30,311 nucleotides of DNA, taken from positions 1-30,311 of the IMG/VR virus record IMGVR_UViG_2778261541_000010. The stretch is one strand, 5' to 3'. Within the stretch, counting starts at the first letter, position 1. Each line of letters begins with the position of its first letter. The DNA comes from a virus. Its lineage: Duplodnaviria; Heunggongvirae; Uroviricota; Caudoviricetes. The notes below the pieces were generated by a model, which had not been told where the DNA came from, did no database searches, and saw only the letters and a list, made by a program, of their open reading frames with translations. The position numbers and the translations under genes were made by a program. Shown here in pieces: positions 1 through 15,279 of the stretch.

Positions 1-1251
1 GTGCTTACCGATACAAAATTAAAAAACCTCAAGCCGCAGGACAAACTATACAAAGTCTCCGATCGTGACGGGCTGTATGTAGCTGTGCTTACGTCAGGTA
101 CGGTCTCGTTTCGCTATGACTACCGTATCAACGGTCGCCGCGAAACACTGGTAATCGGGCAGTATGGGCGTGACGGTATCAGCCTGGCAGAAGCGCGAGA
201 AGAACTGATTGCTGCAAAGAAGCTGCTTAAAGCAGGCCAGTCACCGGCTGCTGCTAAACGTGACGGCATCAAAAAGATTCGTGGTGCCGAAACGTTTGCG
301 GTACATACCGACAGTTATATGAAACACGTCATCCTGGCTGAAAGTACCCGCGCAATGAAGCAGGCAGTGATCGACCGTGACATACTTCCGGTTCTTGGCA
401 ACAAAATGATGGCTGAAATTACCACATCGATGGTTCGTGATTTGTGTGACCGGATTGTCGAACGCGGTGGCCGGGCAACAGCAGTGCAGGCCAGGGAGAT
501 CATCAGCAGCGTATACCGTCACGCCAATGACCGTGGTCATGGTTTGTTTAATCCTGCGGCTGACATTAAGCCTTCGTCTATCGCCATATTTAAACCACGA
601 GAGCGAACACTGACACCAGAAGAAATTGGCCTGTTCTTCCGCACGTTGGATGCCATTGGTGCTATGGGCACTATGAAAATGGCTTTAAAACTGGTGCTTA
701 TCACTATGGTTCGTAAGGGCGAATTCACCAATGCAACGTGGGATGAAATAGATTTTAAAAAATGGACATGGACAATTCCTTCAGACCGCATGAAGGGAAG
801 CCGGGCGCATGTTATTTACCTGCCTAAACAGGCTCAGGATATATTGGTCGGGTTGCAGATGTGCGCTGGTGGAAGTGAATATCTGGTTCCTGGTCGTTAC
901 AATTTCCGGAAGCCATTATCTAATGCCGCGCTGAACTCTCTGATCGACAGAACGGTGAAAATAATAAATGAAGATGGTGAGCATATTCAGGATTTCACCG
1001 TACACGATATGCGCCGTACAGCCAGTACGTTGTTGCATGAGGCTGGTTATCCTTCAGACTGGATTGAAAAGGCTCTGGCACATGAGCAGAAAGGTGTGCG
1101 CGCCGTATATAACAAAGCGGAATACGCCAGACAGCGCGCCTACATGTTGCAGCAGTGGGCCGATATGATTGATTCCTGGATTAACGGGGAGCATACGGAT
1201 CTGATTCCGTTCTCCCCGTCGAAGTTTGAGAAGTGGATGGCGGGGGAATAA
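1..1251 (+). CDS. int: Tyrosine site-specific integrase, P4-type; GTG at position 1, so the true N-terminus may lie upstream of the window
   Basis: 416-aa ORF; N-terminal LTDTKLKNLKP...DGLYV...FRYDYRINGRRE matches the DUF4102/arm-binding region of P4-family integrases; C-terminal HDMRRTASTLLHEAG...Y catalytic region. Confidence 0.9.
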   Translation: MLTDTKLKNLKPQDKLYKVSDRDGLYVAVLTSGTVSFRYDYRINGRRETLVIGQYGRDGISLAEAREELIAAKKLLKAGQSPAAAKRDGIKKIRGAETFAVHTDSYMKHVILAESTRAMKQAVIDRDILPVLGNKMMAEITTSMVRDLCDRIVERGGRATAVQAREIISSVYRHANDRGHGLFNPAADIKPSSIAIFKPRERTLTPEEIGLFFRTLDAIGAMGTMKMALKLVLITMVRKGEFTNATWDEIDFKKWTWTIPSDRMKGSRAHVIYLPKQAQDILVGLQMCAGGSEYLVPGRYNFRKPLSNAALNSLIDRTVKIINEDGEHIQDFTVHDMRRTASTLLHEAGYPSDWIEKALAHEQKGVRAVYNKAEYARQRAYMLQQWADMIDSWINGEHTDLIPFSPSKFEKWMAGE

Positions 1252-1254
1252 CGT

Positions 1255-1449
1255 TTAATTATTCTGCTGATTTTCTTCCATCTCGGCTTCTGCTGCCAGT
1301 GATTCAATTTTATCTGTGAATATTGCTGACAGTGTTGCAAATTCAGCATCAGTGACAGCGGGAATTGGAACAAACCTGATCCCGCTGTGTGCAAGCATGT
1401 TTGCAGTTTCAAGGCATTTCCTTAAATCTGCTGGTGATGCCCTGTTCAT
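1255..1449 (-). CDS. Hypothetical small protein (64 aa), translationally coupled to the methyltransferase
   Basis: ATG at 1449 overlaps the upstream TGA stop (ATGA); last gene of the leftward operon; track ORF trimmed to the internal Met. Confidence 0.35.
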   Translation of the reverse strand: MNRASPADLRKCLETANMLAHSGIRFVPIPAVTDAEFATLSAIFTDKIESLAAEAEMEENQQNN

Positions 1450-2096
1450 GCTGCACGCTCCCGCCCCTGGTTGTCTGTTGGTGACAGCGGAGCATTGCTG
1501 AATGCATTTGTTAATCTGGCAATATCCAACGCGTATCCAGGGTGTAGTTGCACTGCCGGGTCTTCGCACTGATTACCCCAAACATCGAAACCATGAGACG
1601 ACTGGCGGGCGAACAGTTCAATGCGAGAAACATCGCCTAACAATTGCACAAGTTTTTCACGAACGATATCTGGTTTTCTTGAATGCTCAAGCCGCGGTGC
1701 GGTAAATGACTGAACGATCCCTGCATTAATGCGCGTAGGTAGTTTTCCCTTTACTGCAAACAGGCAATCTTCACTATTGGCGCGAGTCATGTGTCCCATA
1801 CCCATAACCAGTTTATCTGGTTGTCGACTACCACATTTTATCCACGTGAAGCCCTTCATGGTCATCAGACGGAATCCCCAGGCTTCAACAACTTTTAGTG
1901 CTTCGAGTGGTTGTGTTGGCACCCACCACATGGCCAACAGACAGTTTTCATCGGCCAAATCCCACACAGGAAGGCGGCAGATATCCAGCACACTCATAAC
2001 CGGATATTTAAAACCGGCACCGCGATTACCATCTGCGGCTTTGTCCCGGTATACCCAAGGTGGATCTGCATAGATTAGTGTGTATTTCTTAGTCAT
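1446..2096 (-). CDS. DNA N6-adenine methyltransferase, MT-A70 family (orphan phage MTase)
   Basis: IYADPPW motif near N-terminus, WGF, HSRKP and WGNQ motifs typical of MT-A70; ATG at 2096 has a GGGGTGG Shine-Dalgarno, preferred over the GTG at 2108 given by the track. Confidence 0.8.
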   Translation of the reverse strand: MTKKYTLIYADPPWVYRDKAADGNRGAGFKYPVMSVLDICRLPVWDLADENCLLAMWWVPTQPLEALKVVEAWGFRLMTMKGFTWIKCGSRQPDKLVMGMGHMTRANSEDCLFAVKGKLPTRINAGIVQSFTAPRLEHSRKPDIVREKLVQLLGDVSRIELFARQSSHGFDVWGNQCEDPAVQLHPGYALDIARLTNAFSNAPLSPTDNQGRERAA

Positions 2097-2355
2097 AAAC
2101 CACCCCACAACATCCTATGCCGCTATAGTCGCCACGGCGAAGGCCGTTACCTTTTGTGATACATTGGTCCCTGCGAACCGCGATCCTTGCACGCTCAACA
2201 TCACCAGAAGCAACATCCATACACTGAAGCCAAAGGTGGGCGGCAATGCGGAACTGCCCTTTTTTCTCTCTTTCAATCGCGCGTTTTTCGATCTCTATCG
2301 CCGCAGGAGTAACGGCAACAACCTTTGAATGGCTGCGCATTGAAACTTTGTTCAT
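2089..2355 (-). CDS. Hypothetical small protein (88 aa); start uncertain (ATG 2355 or GTG 2388)
   Basis: ORF in the leftward operon overlapping the MTase start by 8 nt; no family recognised with confidence. Confidence 0.4.
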   Translation of the reverse strand: MNKVSMRSHSKVVAVTPAAIEIEKRAIEREKKGQFRIAAHLWLQCMDVASGDVERARIAVRRDQCITKGNGLRRGDYSGIGCCGVVYD

Positions 2356-2497
2356 GTGATATTTTTCAAGTCGGCTTAACTTTCTCACTTAATCCAACCC
2401 TCTCTGAAAATTAATGCCAGCAGATAAAGCCATGCTGAAACAGAGGCCAGGAATAAGTACCATCCTGACCATTTGCTCAAGTGCCTTAGCAGCACAC

Positions 2498-2746
2498 TCA
2501 TGCAGCGTTGCTCACAGGACGATATACACGTTGCTGAACAGGAGGTTTTTTACCTTGGAACTCTGCCGGGCTTGCTGCCTGACGTTCATCAAGCCAACGC
2601 TCAACTTCGTCACGGTTCCATGCGCAGCGTTTGTCAGTGATATACCAGCGTTTAGGAAATTCACCTGCGCGCTCCATACGGTCGATAGTGCTCCATGACA
2701 GTGGCACCACCGCCAGGAGTTCCTTCTTACCTAATGCACCTTTCAT
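2498..2746 (-). CDS. AlpA-family (prophage CP4-57 regulatory protein-like) HTH regulator/excisionase-like protein
   Basis: LSWSTIDRMERAGEFPKRWYITDKRCAWNRDEVERWLDER resembles the AlpA/MerR-like phage regulator fold; GAGAGG RBS 5 nt upstream. Confidence 0.7.
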   Translation of the reverse strand: MKGALGKKELLAVVPLSWSTIDRMERAGEFPKRWYITDKRCAWNRDEVERWLDERQAASPAEFQGKKPPVQQRVYRPVSNAA

Positions 2747-2795
2747 AAATACCTCTCTTGGTTGCAGTGCGGCGCGCGTGGCGCCGCGGTGGTGG

Positions 2796-3677
2796 TTACA
2801 TAGATGTTTCGTTTAATTCTTCCCGGCGAACGCTGTAAACGTCGGTGGCTTTTGCCAGCAGTTCGTCATCATCTGAAAGTTTTTGTGCAATGTATTTGTA
2901 AGCCTTATCTAGTTCGGAGACAGTGCTGTAATTCATCGCTGCGCTGGTAAAGGCCATCAGCATTTCTTCTGGATCACGGCTATCCGCTTTACGCGTTTGC
3001 TCATCAGGCTTTTTCACTGTTTTAGCGTTGATCAGACTGTTCATTCCCGCAGCAGTGGTCGTTTGCGGAGTAATGTCTCGCTCAACGCGCGGTGCCGTTT
3101 CCTGTAATTCGTCTGGTGTGTAAACACCGAGAAGTACATCAGGAGCGTGCAGGCGAGCCCATCGTTTCGTGCAAAGATAGGCAAGCTGCTGGCGCGGATC
3201 CTGTTCCCACAATGGAGAGTTACGCACTCCGGCTTGCGCCATACTGATGGTAAGCTCACGTGGTTCTGCTTCTCCTTTAAGAACTGCTGACACAGTTACC
3301 GTCAGATTAGGTGATTTATCTGTTTTGCCGTTAACATTCGACCAGTCACCGCTCCAGCGATAATTCAGGCGTGTCGCCAGCAGGCTGGAAGAGGATACGA
3401 CCGCGTTTACCAACTGTGCTTCGTAGCCTAACGTTCCGTTTACCACATGCGTTTTCTGCGCCACGGCGAACGGGTTCATTCCCCACTGTGCCGCCTGCAT
3501 GGTCACCGCCAGGCAATCGGCAGGTTTGCCTTCAAGATGTTTCGGTACAGTCGCTTTGCTTTGTGACATCAACTCCGCGAAACGCACCAGTTGATTCATG
3601 CCCTCGGGGCTGAAGATTGCCGCAGCAGTGCCTACAGTTGCGCCTGGTTGTGATGTGATTGCGATATCATTGCTCAT
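2796..3677 (-). CDS. Single-strand annealing recombinase, Bet/RecT (Red-beta) family
   Basis: QWGMNPF and ERDITP motifs parallel lambda Bet (QYGLNPW, ERDITP); sits directly downstream of the exonuclease with an ATGA start/stop overlap. Confidence 0.7.
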   Translation of the reverse strand: MSNDIAITSQPGATVGTAAAIFSPEGMNQLVRFAELMSQSKATVPKHLEGKPADCLAVTMQAAQWGMNPFAVAQKTHVVNGTLGYEAQLVNAVVSSSSLLATRLNYRWSGDWSNVNGKTDKSPNLTVTVSAVLKGEAEPRELTISMAQAGVRNSPLWEQDPRQQLAYLCTKRWARLHAPDVLLGVYTPDELQETAPRVERDITPQTTTAAGMNSLINAKTVKKPDEQTRKADSRDPEEMLMAFTSAAMNYSTVSELDKAYKYIAQKLSDDDELLAKATDVYSVRREELNETSM

Positions 3678-4495
3678 ACGTACATATCCTGTTTACGTGC
3701 CCAGTCAGGGCGTTTAATAATTTCCACTCCGCCCCATTCATCGTTGATGCGGCATTCGTGATAGGTATTCAGATCCCGGCGGAACAGAGCGTGCCCGGCA
3801 TCGACATCCGGCGCATCCAGCTCGAACACGCGTACCGGATACCGACCACAATCAATGCTTTCGCTCACGGCAAGAAAGAAAAAACCATGTGGCTGACCAG
3901 TAACCCTCATTGCGCCTTCGCGGTACATTGCGTCCTGCACGTGGTAGCGGAACTCCTCGATGTGGCGTGCAAAACGGTCCATATCTGCAACCTTTTTCAC
4001 GTCGACGATCACGTTGTGCTCGTTCAGCCATTTGTCTGGACGAATTCGGCACAACTCACCCGTATCTTCATCGTTCCAGTACATTGATGCTTCGCAGTAA
4101 CCAGGTGCTTCCAACATCCAGCGTGCCGCCGGGTGAGCCATTGCGCTATCACGCATCAGCTCCAGTTTTCGCCACTGCTCTGCATCAAGTACCGAAATCC
4201 CCATATCCGCTACATCACGAATAAATGCCTCTTCGTCAGCTTTACCTTGTTTTGTCCGACGATCGAATTTCGGTGAAACGATGAAGCGTTTGTCAAACTC
4301 TCCAGGTTCCAGAAGCAGACAGTGCAGAGCAGTACCCATGTCCAGTGCAGACTTCTTCTCTTCGTCTTCCGGAGCAGCCTTCACCCATTTCAGAAGGGCA
4401 GGGTTCTTAGCCACCATATCTAGCTGCGACTTACTCACGCCGTCACCGGCGTGGTAGTCCTCGTTGCTGATATCGAAATAAATTCCCGGATTCAT
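3674..4495 (-). CDS. PD-(D/E)XK exonuclease (YqaJ/exonuclease VIII-like), partner of the annealase
   Basis: N-terminal YHA...S.S.L and IVDVKK (D/E-x-K) motif; exo-bet pair typical of phage recombination modules. Confidence 0.7.
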   Translation of the reverse strand: MNPGIYFDISNEDYHAGDGVSKSQLDMVAKNPALLKWVKAAPEDEEKKSALDMGTALHCLLLEPGEFDKRFIVSPKFDRRTKQGKADEEAFIRDVADMGISVLDAEQWRKLELMRDSAMAHPAARWMLEAPGYCEASMYWNDEDTGELCRIRPDKWLNEHNVIVDVKKVADMDRFARHIEEFRYHVQDAMYREGAMRVTGQPHGFFFLAVSESIDCGRYPVRVFELDAPDVDAGHALFRRDLNTYHECRINDEWGGVEIIKRPDWARKQDMYV

Positions 4496-4797
4496 GCCGC
4501 GTCCCTCTGCCCATCAATCTGATCAGCCAGATCCCAGCGGGCGATAATTGCCATTGCCTCGCGCCGGTAGGCATCCATTAGTTCTTCGAACTCAGGGCTG
4601 TCTTTAGCGGCCTCCAGTACTTCCTGGCGAACGCCTTTAACTGTTACAACGTCGAAAGTTGATGCCAGTTGATGAAGCCGGATACTCTCAATCAGTTCAA
4701 CTTGTCGGTCATATAGCTGTTCTGACAGGCGGTAGTCCTTGTCGAATGCCAGCATGATTTTTTGAAGATTTTTCTGCTGATTAACGTTCATACCCAC
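4492..4797 (-). CDS. Hypothetical protein (101 aa) in the recombination operon
   Basis: ORF tightly packed between the coiled-coil gene and the exonuclease (overlapping stop/start). Confidence 0.5.
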   Translation of the reverse strand: MGMNVNQQKNLQKIMLAFDKDYRLSEQLYDRQVELIESIRLHQLASTFDVVTVKGVRQEVLEAAKDSPEFEELMDAYRREAMAIIARWDLADQIDGQRDAA

Positions 4798-4798
4798 C

Positions 4799-5833
4799 TC
4801 AATATTTGATATACGCGTCCTGCACTTTGCCGCCAGCGATAGCCAACATTGCTTTCTGCGCGAATTCTTCGGGAATGCCTTGGGCTATCAGATCTGCGAT
4901 TACTCTGCGGTTAACGGTACGGCGATGCTCTTTATCCGCAGCTCGGCGCGCTTCTTCGTCGGCGATACGCTTCTGTTCTTCAATGCGGGCTTTTTCTGCC
5001 TCCTCTTGGCGTCGGCGTTCCTCGGCAACGGCTTCTTCTTTTTCGCGTCGTGCACGCTGCTCTGCTTCAATTCGCTGACGTTCTGCTACTTCAGCACGTG
5101 CTTTCTCTTCCGCCGCTAGGCGTGCCGCAGCATCAATTTCAGCTTTCGCTTTTTGTTCAGCTTCGAGCCTGGCCTGTTCAGCAGCTTCCCGGCGGATATT
5201 CTCTTCTCGCTCAATGCGCGCTTTTTCCTCCGCTTCTTTGCGAAGTCTCTCCAGCTCAGCGGCTTCATGCTCGCGTTTTTGAGCTACTGCGAGTGATTCT
5301 TCCAGTTTCTGGATGGTTGAATCCTTGGCTACTCCAGCTTCTGCTGCGTACTCCTGCCAACTCTCATCAAGTGCTACTGATTTAGCCTCTTGAATTCGTT
5401 CCTGAATATCAGTTGATGGCAAGTAGTTTCCGGAGAGATCGATCACGTCAGCCAGTGCTCGCAAATTTGTCAGGCGTTGTTGCAGTGCTTCAGTGCGTAA
5501 TTTCTCAGCATTTTCCCACTCGGTGAGTGGGCGGCGTACTTCATCACGAAGCCGATCGCATTCGGTTACGAAGCGTCGTAACTCTGCTTCAACTACTTTC
5601 GGCTGTTCTTTCAGGCGTTTCAGATAATCACGTCCTGGTTTTTCTACCGCTGTTTTACTTCTTGAAACCTTCGCAGCCAGAGATGCAATGCGCTTTCTGC
5701 CTTTGTCTGTGCTAATGTCAGGCACTTCATTAACACCTTCACGGATCTGCTCGAGAAACTTTTCCAGTCCTTTTTCAACGTAAATTCTTGGTGCCATATC
5801 TGGTGTGATTTCGATGATTGATAATTCACTCAT
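4799..5833 (-). CDS. Coiled-coil, E/A/R/K-rich phage protein (TolA-like low complexity)
   Basis: 344-aa ORF with a long repetitive charged helical region (EAEQKAKAEIDAAARLAAEEKARAE...); first large gene of the leftward operon. Confidence 0.6.
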   Translation of the reverse strand: MSELSIIEITPDMAPRIYVEKGLEKFLEQIREGVNEVPDISTDKGRKRIASLAAKVSRSKTAVEKPGRDYLKRLKEQPKVVEAELRRFVTECDRLRDEVRRPLTEWENAEKLRTEALQQRLTNLRALADVIDLSGNYLPSTDIQERIQEAKSVALDESWQEYAAEAGVAKDSTIQKLEESLAVAQKREHEAAELERLRKEAEEKARIEREENIRREAAEQARLEAEQKAKAEIDAAARLAAEEKARAEVAERQRIEAEQRARREKEEAVAEERRRQEEAEKARIEEQKRIADEEARRAADKEHRRTVNRRVIADLIAQGIPEEFAQKAMLAIAGGKVQDAYIKY

Positions 5834-5991
5834 TTGCTAACCTCCTCCCATATCTCGTTATCGTTGGCCACATCGCGAGCTTCTTTGCTGACGAAAGCCC
5901 ACTTAATGCCTTCCTGTAAGGTGCGGAACTTCCAGCTCATGAATCCGCATGCAGTAACGCAGTACCAACCGTTGATGATTTTCCACTGCAT
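5830..5991 (-). CDS. Small ORF (53 aa) missing from the ORF track; first gene downstream of the leftward early promoter
   Basis: My translation: MQWKIINGWYCVTACGFMSWKFRTLQEGIKWAFVSKEARDVANDNEIWEEVSK; GAGG 9 nt upstream of ATG; TGA overlaps the ATG of the next gene (ATGA). Confidence 0.35.
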   Translation of the reverse strand: MQWKIINGWYCVTACGFMSWKFRTLQEGIKWAFVSKEARDVANDNEIWEEVSK

Positions 5992-6010
5992 AACTTGTTA
6001 CCTCGGTCTG

Positions 6011-6025
6011 TTACCGTTGAGGTAA
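6011..6025. promoter_or_regulatory. Operator: perfect 15-bp palindrome TTACCGTTGAGGTAA overlapping the -10 of the leftward early promoter
   Basis: TTACC-N5-GGTAA; 62 bp centre-to-centre from the 6073 site. Confidence 0.7.
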
Positions 6026-6053
6026 TAATTATGCGTATCTGGTTTGATGTCAA
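6025..6053 (-). promoter_or_regulatory. Leftward early promoter (PL-like)
   Basis: Minus-strand TTGACA (6053-6048) followed 14-17 nt later by CATAAT/AATTAT; flanked by two operator palindromes. Confidence 0.5.
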
Positions 6054-6072
6054 TAGGTATGAGTTAAAAAAA

Positions 6073-6087
6073 TTACCCATCAGGTAA
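6073..6087. promoter_or_regulatory. Operator: TTACCCATCAGGTAA
   Basis: Perfect TTACC-N5-GGTAA palindrome between the repressor terminator and the leftward promoter. Confidence 0.7.
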
Positions 6088-6097
6088 TCGCACAGGC

Positions 6098-6123
6098 AAT
6101 AAAAAAGCCGCCATGAGGCGGCT
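6098..6123 (-). terminator. Intrinsic terminator of the repressor gene
   Basis: Minus-strand hairpin AGCCGCC-TCAT-GGCGGCT followed by TTTTTATT; 22 nt downstream of the repressor stop. Confidence 0.7.
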
Positions 6124-6144
6124 TACTTACTGAAAAATATGATT

Positions 6145-6729
6145 TTATTGTTTGTTTTTTTCGTTCTGGCTGATGACAAATTCAATGTAACTTTCGATCT
6201 TTGCCTTCTCTGTTTCAGGTAACAATGCGTAGCGCGAGCGGTCATAGTTGATGGTCGCAGGGTCGTGCGGGTGAATCAGTAATTCATAGCCGTGACGCCC
6301 GAATGCGGATGCAACATTCTCCAGGGTGGAAATGGAAACACTGACCTCATTGTTTAACAGGCGGCTGATTGTCACCTGGGCGACGCCGGATGCGCGGTGA
6401 AGTTTTCCCTGCGTTGAAAGGTCGCGGCTTTCGCTCATCCAGCGTTCTAGGTTGTGAGCCGCCAGCTGACCAATGTCGCTTGGGCCGACAGGCTGAAAAC
6501 CTTCCTGAGAAAGCGAGCGATCGATATCAAGCCAGTTACGGGGTTTATTGGCGGCAGCTTCAATTTTTCGCGCAACCTGGTCGCCGATAACCTTCTTGCC
6601 AAGAGCCCAGCGGTTTACCAGATTTGCCTGAGTTCCAAGTTTTTCTGCCATCCGCGTCTGAACACCATTGAATTCACGGTCGATCAAGTCGTTGAGATTT
6701 TGCCTGCGGACGTCCTGGATACTTTTCAT
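6145..6729 (-). CDS. Phage repressor with two XRE-type HTH domains in tandem (CI-like function)
   Basis: Two HTH segments (MAEKLGTQANLVNRWALGKK and ASGVAQVTISRLLNNEVSVS); divergent from a cro-like gene across an operator-rich intergenic region; own terminator downstream. Confidence 0.8.
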   Translation of the reverse strand: MKSIQDVRRQNLNDLIDREFNGVQTRMAEKLGTQANLVNRWALGKKVIGDQVARKIEAAANKPRNWLDIDRSLSQEGFQPVGPSDIGQLAAHNLERWMSESRDLSTQGKLHRASGVAQVTISRLLNNEVSVSISTLENVASAFGRHGYELLIHPHDPATINYDRSRYALLPETEKAKIESYIEFVISQNEKNKQ

Positions 6730-6784
6730 TTTCTGGAAAATCGCCTCATATATGAATCAGTAGATGATTCAATTTAAAGCAATA

Positions 6785-6799
6785 TTACCCAATAGGTAA
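6785..6799. promoter_or_regulatory. Operator O1 of the immunity region: TTACCCAATAGGTAA
   Basis: Perfect palindrome between divergent repressor and cro genes. Confidence 0.7.
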
Positions 6800-6801
6800 A
6801 T

Positions 6802-6816
6802 GCACCCCATAGGTAA
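6802..6816. promoter_or_regulatory. Degenerate operator O2: GCACCCCATAGGTAA
   Basis: Right half-site perfect, left half 3/5; 17 bp from O1. Confidence 0.45.
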
Positions 6817-6829
6817 CTATCCTTGATTT

Positions 6830-6858
6830 TTGTTACCTTATGGGTGAATATTTATTAT
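6830..6858 (+). promoter_or_regulatory. Rightward early promoter driving cro (PR-like)
   Basis: TTGTTA-17 bp-TATTAT, about 25 nt upstream of the cro ATG. Confidence 0.5.
6833..6847. promoter_or_regulatory. Operator O3: TTACCTTATGGGTGA (one mismatch), overlapping the cro promoter
   Basis: Overlaps -35 TTGTTA (6830-6835) of a promoter with -10 TATTAT (6853-6858), 17-bp spacer. Confidence 0.55.
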
Positions 6859-6883
6859 CTGAAATAAATATCAGGCAATAGCT

Positions 6884-7114
6884 ATGAGCGATAACGGACA
6901 TTTCGATTTCAAAAAGCACTGGCTTGCACTTACTCCGGATGAGCGTGAAGCCTTCGCACAGGAAGCCGGAACGACGAGTCACTATATCCAGACTCACTTA
7001 ACAGGTAAGCGCAAAATGCCAGGTAAGGTATTGATGAATGGGCTTTTTAAAGCCTGTAAAACAAGACAATGGCTGCGCTCAAAAGCAGAACTGGCATACT
7101 TCTTCTACTCATGA
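6884..7114 (+). CDS. Cro-like small HTH regulator
   Basis: 76-aa ORF divergent from the repressor; HTH-like LTPDEREAFAQEAGTTSHYIQTHLTGKR; promoter and operators immediately upstream; terminator downstream. Confidence 0.6.
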   Translation: MSDNGHFDFKKHWLALTPDEREAFAQEAGTTSHYIQTHLTGKRKMPGKVLMNGLFKACKTRQWLRSKAELAYFFYS

Positions 7115-7136
7115 TATCCAGCCACAACCCTCTGTA

Positions 7137-7158
7137 GACCGCCATCCGGCGGTCTTTT
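7137..7158 (+). terminator. Intrinsic terminator immediately after cro (tR1-like)
   Basis: GACCGCC-ATCC-GGCGGTC followed by TTTTCAT. Confidence 0.6.
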
Positions 7159-7169
7159 CATATCTATTC

Positions 7170-7184
7170 GCACCTCAAAGGTAA
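7170..7184. promoter_or_regulatory. Degenerate operator-like site GCACCTCAAAGGTAA
   Basis: Same GCACC-N5-GGTAA variant as the 6802 site; lies between the cro terminator and the zinc-ribbon gene. Confidence 0.35.
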
Positions 7185-7264
7185 TAAAAAACCAAATCTG
7201 GTTGATCTTTTTTTTGTGTCAGCACAAAATAACCGTAATCCCAATACTAATAACAGGGCTTACC

Positions 7265-7465
7265 ATGGAAATCATTACACGTATTGATGCCGCAAAGCGC
7301 GGACTTAAACGCTACTACACCGGAAAACCATGTAAGCACGGACATGACAGTGAACGCTGGGTTTACAACGGACACTGTGTTGAGTGCACCATGGAATCAA
7401 ACCGTCGCATCAGGGCAGAGATTAAGCAGATCATGATTAATTCCTCCCCACAACATTCAAGCTGA
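7265..7465 (+). CDS. Small zinc-ribbon protein (C-x-H...C-x2-C), occupying the cII-like position
   Basis: YYTGKPCKHGHDSERWVYNGHCVEC motif; start trimmed to the ATG at 7265 rather than the track start at 7202. Confidence 0.5.
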   Translation: MEIITRIDAAKRGLKRYYTGKPCKHGHDSERWVYNGHCVECTMESNRRIRAEIKQIMINSSPQHSS

Positions 7466-9097: not shown

Positions 9098-9112
9098 TTA
9101 CCTGTTGGGTAA
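9098..9112. promoter_or_regulatory. Operator: TTACCTGTTGGGTAA
   Basis: Perfect palindrome upstream of the -35 of the 9.1-kb promoter. Confidence 0.7.
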
Positions 9113-9131: not shown

Positions 9132-9160
9132 TTGATTCCATGTCTTATGTGGTTTTTAAT
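9132..9160 (+). promoter_or_regulatory. Promoter for the accessory (nin-like) operon
   Basis: TTGATT (9132-9137)-17 bp-TTTAAT (9155-9160); flanked by operators at 9098 and 9160. Confidence 0.5.
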
Positions 9161-9174
9161 TACCTAAGGGGTAA
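9160..9174. promoter_or_regulatory. Operator: TTACCTAAGGGGTAA overlapping the -10/+1 region and the ribosome-binding site of the DUF1064 gene
   Basis: Perfect palindrome ending 4 nt before the ATG at 9178; 62 bp from the 9098 site. Confidence 0.7.
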
Positions 9175-12095: not shown

Positions 12096-12110
12096 TTACC
12101 ACAACGGTAA
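12096..12110. promoter_or_regulatory. Operator: TTACCACAACGGTAA, immediately upstream of the small terminase start
   Basis: Perfect palindrome; a degenerate overlapping repeat follows at 12114-12128 (TTACCACGGTGGTTA). Confidence 0.6.
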
Positions 12111-12127
12111 CTATTACCACGGTGGTT

Positions 12128-12724
12128 ATGATGCCTGCTGAACCTAAAACCTATAAACGCAAATCAACGCAATTTAAGCCACTAACAGCAATGCAGGAGG
12201 CTTATTGCCAGTCATACATCAAAACGCCTGAAAACCAGACTCAGGCAGCGATTAACGCAGGATTCTCCCCAAATACAGCGGCAGTTAAAGCCAGTGTCAT
12301 GATGCGCGATGAACGCATTCAAAAACGGATTGCCGAGCTGATGGAGGAGCGCAACAAACGAATGCGCGTCAGTGCTGATTACGTTCTCATGCGTCTGGTG
12401 GAGATCGACCAGATGGACGTGATCGACATCCTCAACGACGATGGGAGCCTTAAGCCAATCCGCGAGTGGCCGAAAATTTGGCGCACTACGCTTAGTGGCT
12501 TTGATCTGTCATCGACCATCATGAACATGAACGAGGATTCGATAGAGACAATCCTCAAAAAAATTAAATGGCCTGATAAGGTGAAGAACCTCGAACTGAT
12601 TGGTAAGCACGTCGACGTCAACGCATTCAAAGAACGCCTGGATGTTAATGTGAATGTGACAATTGCTGATCGCATAGCGGCAGCCAGGAAGAGACTGAAA
12701 GAACGTCAGGATGGCAATCAGTGA
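12128..12724 (+). CDS. Terminase small subunit
   Basis: TAMQEAYCQSYIKTPENQTQAAINAGFSP matches the HTH of phage small terminases; start trimmed to ATG 12128 (track start 12050 runs through a terminator and repeats). Confidence 0.7.
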   Translation: MMPAEPKTYKRKSTQFKPLTAMQEAYCQSYIKTPENQTQAAINAGFSPNTAAVKASVMMRDERIQKRIAELMEERNKRMRVSADYVLMRLVEIDQMDVIDILNDDGSLKPIREWPKIWRTTLSGFDLSSTIMNMNEDSIETILKKIKWPDKVKNLELIGKHVDVNAFKERLDVNVNVTIADRIAAARKRLKERQDGNQ

Positions 12725-14286: not shown

Positions 14287-14667
14287 TTATTGCTCGCTTA
14301 ACTTCTGCTTCAGCAAGTAACCTTCGAGCATCCAGATTTTGTTTACAGCATTCTGCCGGGCAATCTTCCGACCAATTTCTGCATCAAAATTTTCCGGGCT
14401 TGCACAGGCACTCTCTCCGGTGACGGTGAAGCCATTCTTCAGCACCAGTACGCAGAAAGTGAGCAACTTCAATGGTGATAAATCACGATCGCCTTCTTCT
14501 GGTTTTTCTCTGCCACAATATTCGTTGCTGGAAATGGCACCATTTCGTCCATCATAAGCAGTAAAGTAATGCTCGCTTTTAATCACATCTTCGATGTGCT
14601 GCGGGGTGATTCGCGGTGCCGTTTTGCCTTTCTCAACGATTTCTTTTTCGATTTGCTGGTCGTTCAT
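14287..14667 (-). CDS. Reverse-oriented moron gene, likely DUF1398 (YbcV/YdfO-like) family
   Basis: 126-aa ORF on the opposite strand to all flanking structural genes; AAGGTGAG RBS; intrinsic terminators on both sides; family assignment from memory of YbcV/YdfO-like prophage proteins. Confidence 0.5.
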   Translation of the reverse strand: MNDQQIEKEIVEKGKTAPRITPQHIEDVIKSEHYFTAYDGRNGAISSNEYCGREKPEEGDRDLSPLKLLTFCVLVLKNGFTVTGESACASPENFDAEIGRKIARQNAVNKIWMLEGYLLKQKLSEQ

Positions 14668-15264: not shown

Positions 15265-15279
15265 TTACCTGAAAGGTAA
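15265..15279. promoter_or_regulatory. Operator: TTACCTGAAAGGTAA upstream of the virion-gene operon
   Basis: Perfect palindrome about 90 bp upstream of the first structural gene. Confidence 0.65.

Follow-up and report, generated by a model that had tools for sequence, protein, structure and literature searches.

What is made first when the repressor of an epsilon15/phiV10-like prophage lets go of its leftward early promoter, and what does that product do? The question is raised by a stretch of 30,311 nt of tailed-phage DNA (IMG/VR record IMGVR_UViG_2778261541_000010, positions 1 to 30,311; hereafter, the window), in which a 53-codon open reading frame (ORF) at 5830..5991 on the minus strand stands at the head of the leftward operon. 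We find that this ORF, judged by comparison with its relatives, is a genuine protein-coding gene under purifying selection, and its identity and structure as a member of the epsilon15-gp37/phiV10-gp39 family are practically certain. The gene is already known, as part of a catalogued family without an assigned function. A first-pass annotation had called it unlisted, which is true under the length cut-off applied there; the gene is annotated in both GenBank and RefSeq. Our best overall explanation, plausible although still short of probable, is that the gp37-family protein is the product of the first cistron of the operon, a soluble mini-domain that would serve as an immediate-early, host-directed effector. 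The gene and its translation signals are as follows.

5830..5991, minus strand: gp37-family small early gene, 53 aa, ATG start at 5991, product MQWKIINGWYCVTACGFMSWKFRTLQEGIKWAFVSKEARDVANDNEIWEEVSK
6001..6004, minus strand: Shine-Dalgarno (SD) sequence GAGG, 9 nt before the gp37-family ATG
5830..5833, minus strand: ATGA stop/start overlap between the 53-aa ORF and the 344-aa gene (tcat on the plus strand)

The window comes from a temperate podophage of the epsilon15/phiV10 type (Uetakevirus). The region around the ORF shares 98% identity with Escherichia phage phiv142-3 and 95-98% with phiV10, TL-2011b, vB_EcoP_ZX5, and other Uetakevirus temperate podophages. Residues 1-49 of the product align with positions 1-49 of the 50-position PHROG 898 profile, a full-length match (E 3.2e-38), and the product carries the N-terminal core of the family, M-x-W-K-[IF]-x-N-G-W-Y-x-V-T-x-x-G-x-x-S-W-K-F...W-A-F. 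It corresponds to Orf44 of phiv142-3 (QGF19649.1; 98% identity), gp39 of phiV10 (YP_512294.1; 100% identity over 49 residues), gp37 of epsilon15 (NP_848245.1; 79% identity), and RefSeq entry WP_001198619.1, each of which is labelled "hypothetical protein," and PHROG 898 itself is labelled "function unknown." The three phage homologues are of the same size and likewise open the leftward operon, directly behind the repressor operators. They differ at the end of the gene: in the window phage and phiv142-3, the C terminus extends 3 to 4 residues further (EEVSK), running into an inserted 344-aa gene, whereas in phiV10 and epsilon15, this insert is missing and gp36 directly follows the gp37-family gene. 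Annotated copies are also found in BUCT711, BUCT554, PAT1, and RefSeq E. coli entries.

The family is widespread but narrow. By tblastn, gp37 was found in 36 phage records (Escherichia, Salmonella, Klebsiella, and Enterobacter), and there are 372 IMG/VR relatives. Besides E. coli, the locus is known from Salmonella, Klebsiella, Enterobacter, and Citrobacter. Epsilon15/phiV10-like prophages are common, the gp37 locus being present in 558 of 5426 complete E. coli genomes (∼10%). When 1.84 billion representative proteins were searched exhaustively with HMMER, only 19 clusters came back, all of them gp37 family or truncated or frameshifted copies with one exception, a 1929-aa repeat protein (P0033) that we rejected as spurious. 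No mention of the accessions or locus tags of the protein was found in the literature searched; the paper on vB_EcoP_ZX5 treats the repressor, antirepressor, and integrase only.

Length could not establish the ORF as a gene: 66 ORFs of 30 aa or longer fall wholly or partly within a 5-kb stretch of the window, so 53 codons are no evidence by themselves. The comparative evidence, in contrast, is decisive in setting the ORF apart from chance. Against epsilon15, Tyrion, BUCT711, BUCT554, and PAT1, the ratio of nonsynonymous to synonymous substitution rates (dN/dS) was 0.03-0.17 (dN 0.07-0.24; dS 1.2-1.9, which is saturated), and variable sites fell at codon positions 1, 2, and 3 in the proportions 12/14/27. 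The corresponding ratio of polymorphisms (pN/pS) was lowest in the sense frame, at 0.29, compared with 0.45 in the phase-linked antisense frame and 1.2-1.5 in the other four. The ORF was intact in all 95 fetched loci, including the distant relative L009, which a script had flagged on account of an alignment starting one codon late. Of the 94 loci scored, 91 had an SD-like motif within 20 nt 5′ of the start. We also looked for loss of the ORF in conserved relatives and found none, with 35 of 35 enterobacterial phage records that have the cro-like gene keeping it. Purifying selection, intactness, and the conserved SD and ATG thus bear out the earlier proposal of a real gene. The same proposal had named a GAGG ribosome-binding site, translational coupling to the next gene by ATGA, and a Trp-rich product, and each of these stands: GAGG occupies minus-strand positions 6004..6001, 9 nt 5′ of the ATG; the TGA stop shares bases with the start codon of the 344-aa gene (4799..5833), as seen in the tcat at 5830-5833; and 5 of the 53 residues are Trp.

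We then placed the gene with respect to the lysogeny switch. Read from right to left, the order is cro-like gene, repressor, terminator, promoter with operators, 53-aa ORF, 344-aa gene, 101-aa gene, exonuclease, and RecT, and the features that surround the ORF are listed here.

6884..7114, plus strand: cro-like gene
6145..6729, minus strand: prophage repressor with two helix-turn-helix (HTH) domains, SPC32H Rep type (profile matches, annotated relatives, and PMC9638917)
6105..6124, minus strand: intrinsic terminator ending the repressor transcript, which separates the repressor gene from PL and is annotated in phiV10
6073..6087: distal operator TTACCCATCAGGTAA, 5′ of the −35 hexamer, an exact TTACC-N5-GGTAA palindrome
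6025..6053, minus strand: PL-like leftward early promoter from a consensus scan, TTGACA (6053..6048), 17-nt spacer, AATTAT (6030..6025)
6011..6025: promoter-proximal operator TTACCGTTGAGGTAA, overlapping the predicted transcription start, an exact TTACC-N5-GGTAA palindrome conserved in relatives
4799..5833, minus strand: 344-aa coiled-coil protein (PHROG 1376, labelled "function unknown"), second cistron here
4492..4797, minus strand: gp36-family 101-aa protein (PHROG 856), the usual second cistron
3674..4495, minus strand: RecE-like exonuclease of the PD-(D/E)XK type (DUF3799)
2796..3677, minus strand: RecT single-strand annealing protein

About 27 nt separate the ORF from the predicted PL start. 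Apart from TTGACA-17-AATTAT, the consensus scan gave no leftward promoter-like site in 1200-6100, and the PL TTGACA hexamer is kept in relatives. No leftward terminator-like site was found between PL and position 1200, and one transcript can therefore cover the operon. The TTACC-N5-GGTAA motif occurs nine times in the window against 0.61 expected, with two of the copies in the divergent PR/PRM region, and in the curated epsilon15 record the corresponding region carries three annotated repressor-binding sites. Together with the recurrence of the arrangement in 95 related loci, these annotated sites uphold the view taken in the first-pass annotation that the ORF is the first cistron behind a repressor-controlled leftward promoter. 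In the relative SPC32H, experiments have characterized the repressor as a tetramer that binds operators and that an antirepressor inactivates (PMC9638917).

How the locus varies among relatives bears on what gp37 might do. Context was counted in 80 IMG/VR loci and ORF integrity in the 95 fetched ones. The order cro-like gene, repressor, PL, gp37 held in every locus examined, and the gp37 family was never found outside this one genomic context. What follows gp37 is variable, with gp36 (PHROG 856) in most loci and the 344-aa protein followed by gp36 in 13 of the 80 IMG/VR loci and in the window. Where present, the 344-aa gene is ATGA-coupled to gp37 in all but eight loci; in those eight, a TAG ends gp37 four codons early and removes the overlap, while the core of the ORF is kept. 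Farther downstream, 17 of the 80 IMG/VR loci and epsilon15 lack a detectable RecE/RecT pair of the window type or carry a replacement. Sequence divergence is equally uneven. gp37 is 70-85% identical to the window protein in relatives where the repressor has fallen to 41-45% and gp36 to 46-53%; with epsilon15, the values are 79% for gp37, 42% for Rep, and 51% for gp36. Residues 1-36 of gp37 are nearly invariant among the close relatives from E. coli, Salmonella, Klebsiella, Enterobacter, and Citrobacter, whereas the C-terminal tail varies and is sometimes cut short.

A core that stays frozen across enterobacterial genera while the repressor diverges and the recombinase genes are swapped most likely faces a conserved host target. 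In the sequence of events that we propose, lifting of the repressor would allow the leftward transcript to be made from PL, and gp37 would be the first protein produced on infection or derepression. Its mini-domain would then act in trans, right after derepression or infection, by binding a conserved host component, and translation would pass by coupling to the next gene (the 344-aa insert here, gp36 in most relatives) ahead of the RecE-like and RecT genes. That gp37 has a conserved host protein or nucleic acid as its binding partner, instead of a coevolving phage one, is a possibility that we put forward tentatively. More doubtful still is the notion that gp37 founds a new class of immediate-early effectors, which would block or redirect a conserved target in Enterobacterales (such as RNA polymerase, a nuclease, part of a defence system, or a protein of division or replication) at the very outset of lytic development, or that it regulates early transcription without N through a new type of structure. 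Some small immediate-early proteins of other phages have proved to be precise inhibitors of host machinery, which makes gp37 a sensible target for inexpensive functional work. It would be the first protein to appear once a structurally studied repressor/antirepressor switch, SPC32H Rep/Ant, opens; it is retained throughout, with a 36-residue core that is almost invariant, and it has no detectable relatives outside its family. The present analysis settles its identity and anatomy, not its function, and as a discovery the gene, annotated before, is ordinary.

The properties of the protein are those of a small soluble domain. Queried with either the protein alone or alignments of the family, Pfam, NCBIfam, PADLOC, and PDB sequences gave no meaningful match, and none of the anti-phage defence profiles in PADLOC matched gp37. 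The highest Kyte-Doolittle mean over 19 residues is 0.57, and the grand average of hydropathy is −0.35; we found no membrane-spanning segment by hydropathy and rejected a membrane-protein reading on the 19-residue value. The hydrophobic stretch that the first-pass annotation had pointed out is accordingly not membrane-like, and in the better AlphaFold2 model it becomes a β-hairpin plus a third strand. The N-terminal half is basic and aromatic, with residues 1-36 at an isoelectric point (pI) of 9.6, and the tail is acidic at pI 4.1. Two cysteines are present that are not conserved in distant members, which makes metal binding unlikely. An AlphaFold2 run with an alignment of close relatives gave an all-helical model that we discarded (predicted local distance difference test score, pLDDT, 55). 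With a diverse alignment, the prediction had strands at residues 2-6, 9-14, and 18-22 and a helix at 25-44, with pLDDT 76.7 and all five models at 69.7 or above. From this model, we infer that gp37 is probably a soluble mini-domain of ∼6 kDa, in which three antiparallel strands pack on one helix. The predicted β-β-β-α fold finds generic matches only (UPF0339/YegP-DUF1508, MmoD, the AP2/integrase N-terminal type, T7 gp1.2, and the C-terminal half of PH domains). For UPF0339/YegP (DUF1508), there was no Pfam match, and hhalign produced no alignment with an approximate YegP sequence.

We compared gp37 with the small early-left proteins of lambda and P22 by searching the PL-operon proteins of both phages with the gp37 family profile (hmmsearch). 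All scores were negative, both for lambda N, CIII, Kil, Ral, Gam, orf28, ea10, orf60a, and orf63 and for P22 gp24, C3, Kil, Arf, Abc1, Abc2, Ral, gp17, orf45, orf56, orf78, and orf87. Neither BLASTP nor hhalign found similarity to CIII or Kil, with an hhalign probability of 0.5% for CIII, and an apparent N-terminal resemblance to CIII (MQY.I.GW) did not hold in either program. The homology search for small-protein families suggested by the first-pass annotation therefore yielded the PHROG 898 match but neither Kil nor any other known small early protein. Lambda CIII, lambda and P22 Kil, and P22 Arf resemble gp37 in size (47-62 aa) and in early-left expression, but their genes lie further down their operons than gp37.

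The closest positional counterparts are lambda N and P22 gp24, which share with gp37 the place of first cistron after a repressor-controlled PL, and gp37 could be a phage-directed regulator, an analogue and not a homologue of N, CIII, or Cro. Such a protein might tune the lysis-lysogeny switch or permit read-through of an intrinsic terminator that stands directly 3′ of the cro-like gene, before the replication genes (7136-7155, plus strand; also annotated in phiV10), perhaps with its basic, Trp-rich sheet binding nucleic acid. We consider this unlikely. gp37 has no sequence similarity to N, gp24, CIII, or C3, its N terminus (MQWKIINGW) contains no Arg-rich motif, and it is predicted to form a folded β-β-β-α domain, whereas lambda N is intrinsically disordered. 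Its 27-nt leader has no nut site, unlike the lambda N/P22 gp24 system, and boxA/nut matches in the window were not above chance, with none in the early regions; L009, a distant relative, alone had a nut-like boxA with a hairpin. The window yielded neither an N-like gene nor a nut site that would explain how rightward transcription passes the 7136-7155 terminator, and on the leftward side, there is no terminator that would need suppression. Furthermore, gp37 does not covary with the fast-evolving repressor.

Position in the operon could also hint at a part in recombination. gp37 heads an operon whose core is gp36, the exonuclease, and RecT; it is coupled to gp36 in most relatives and to a genuine lambda-Gam-family protein in the divergent locus L008; and small accessory recombination proteins are known from P22 (arf, 47 aa). 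It might therefore be an accessory factor of a recombination/anti-RecBCD module, like P22 Arf or Abc1, working with gp36 or a Gam-type protein and RecE-like/RecT. Several observations make this quite unlikely. gp37 lacks similarity to Arf, Abc1, Abc2, and Gam, it is kept in the 17 IMG/VR loci and in epsilon15 where RecE/RecT is replaced or undetectable, it is far more conserved than gp36, and in the window, the unrelated 344-aa gene stands between the two.

The first-pass annotation had thought of host takeover or division inhibition, and a Kil/DicB-type division inhibitor or membrane-active small toxin is, on our reckoning, improbable. It has in its favor a positional analogy only, to small early-left genes such as kil of lambda and P22, together with the Trp-rich composition and a moderately hydrophobic N-terminal half. 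The protein shows no similarity to lambda or P22 Kil, however, and no Pfam family matches, and no DicB-type similarity appeared in the Pfam scan, which was the sole coverage of DicB. Its hydrophobic segment is predicted to be β-sheet, and no segment reaches the hydropathy of a membrane helix. With neither a membrane-like stretch nor a resemblance to Kil or another known small early protein, the idea remains a guess from position.

It is very improbable that the ORF is merely a cis-acting upstream ORF delivering ribosomes to the next gene or that an antisense ORF is the real gene: the stop of the ORF often overlaps or closely abuts the start of the gene that follows, most relatives have one antisense frame open, and the record of Tyrion annotates the opposite strand, but across genera residues 1-36 hardly change although dS is saturated, pN/pS is lowest in the sense frame, the SD and ATG are conserved, and the eight loci that lose coupling to the 344-aa gene keep the ORF core. 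We rejected the antisense ORF as a real gene on pN/pS and on SD/ATG conservation. The GenBank/RefSeq record of Tyrion (L004) carries this antisense ORF as gp39 at 2905-3117 on the minus strand and omits the gp37 homologue, a strand misannotation as judged by the selection analysis.

The 344-aa protein is a coiled coil rich in Glu, Arg, Ala, and Lys, inserted between gp37 and gp36, for which no Pfam family was found. Its gene is also present in phiv142-3 and in loci L009, L012, and L014, and it is absent from phiV10 and epsilon15. At the gp36 position of L008 (3819-4106, plus strand) lies the lambda-Gam-family protein (PF06064, E 3.6e-12). From this replacement, gp36 (PHROG 856) may be a functional counterpart of Gam, the RecBCD inhibitor, although this is no more than hinted at: gp36 and the L008 protein were linked by BLASTP at E 5e-4, yet the hhalign probability was only 1.6-6.8%.

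The leader between PL and gp37 is also subject to insertion. Epsilon15-type and more distant relatives have an extra leader of 70 to ∼400 nt between the promoter and gp37, and in relatives with such an extension, an operator is kept just 5′ of the gp37 ribosome-binding site. At about 2870-3000 in the loci of epsilon15, BUCT711, and PAT1 (L003, L005, and L007), an insertion of ∼70 nt separates the promoter-proximal operator from a third operator just 5′ of gp37. It contains a hairpin, which in BUCT711 is followed by TTTTCT and looks terminator-like, and it is absent in the lineage of the window. The longer PL-gp37 leader of L009 (4600-4990) contains a boxA-like CGCTCTTTA, a 6-bp hairpin (CACCGC-GATGAT-GCGGTG), a 60-aa gene, and a GC-rich hairpin, after which comes another operator. 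These elements may be an inserted N-type antitermination cassette.

Copies of the operator motif are also present outside the immunity region of the window. Two of them, at 9098-9112 and 9160-9174, lie in the gap between a P-like replication gene and a DUF1064 gene, and two more, within 12096-12128, lie just 5′ of the Pfam-matched part of the small terminase. Another, at 15265-15279, adjoins a minus-strand TTGACA-17-AATTAT promoter of PL-like build, which faces a gene of the N4-gp49/Sf6-gp66 family (14287..14667, minus strand). With such copies at hand, the repressor may control several promoters directly.

An Rfam scan of 5500-7400 gave no family near its gathering score. No LexA-type peptidase domain was among the Pfam matches of the two-HTH repressor, which fits induction by an antirepressor. 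Among relatives, the cro-like protein (54-100% identity; 76% for epsilon15) is far more conserved than the repressor (41-99%; 42% for epsilon15). Despite this divergence of the repressor, the operator half-sites TTACC/GGTAA are common to all relatives.

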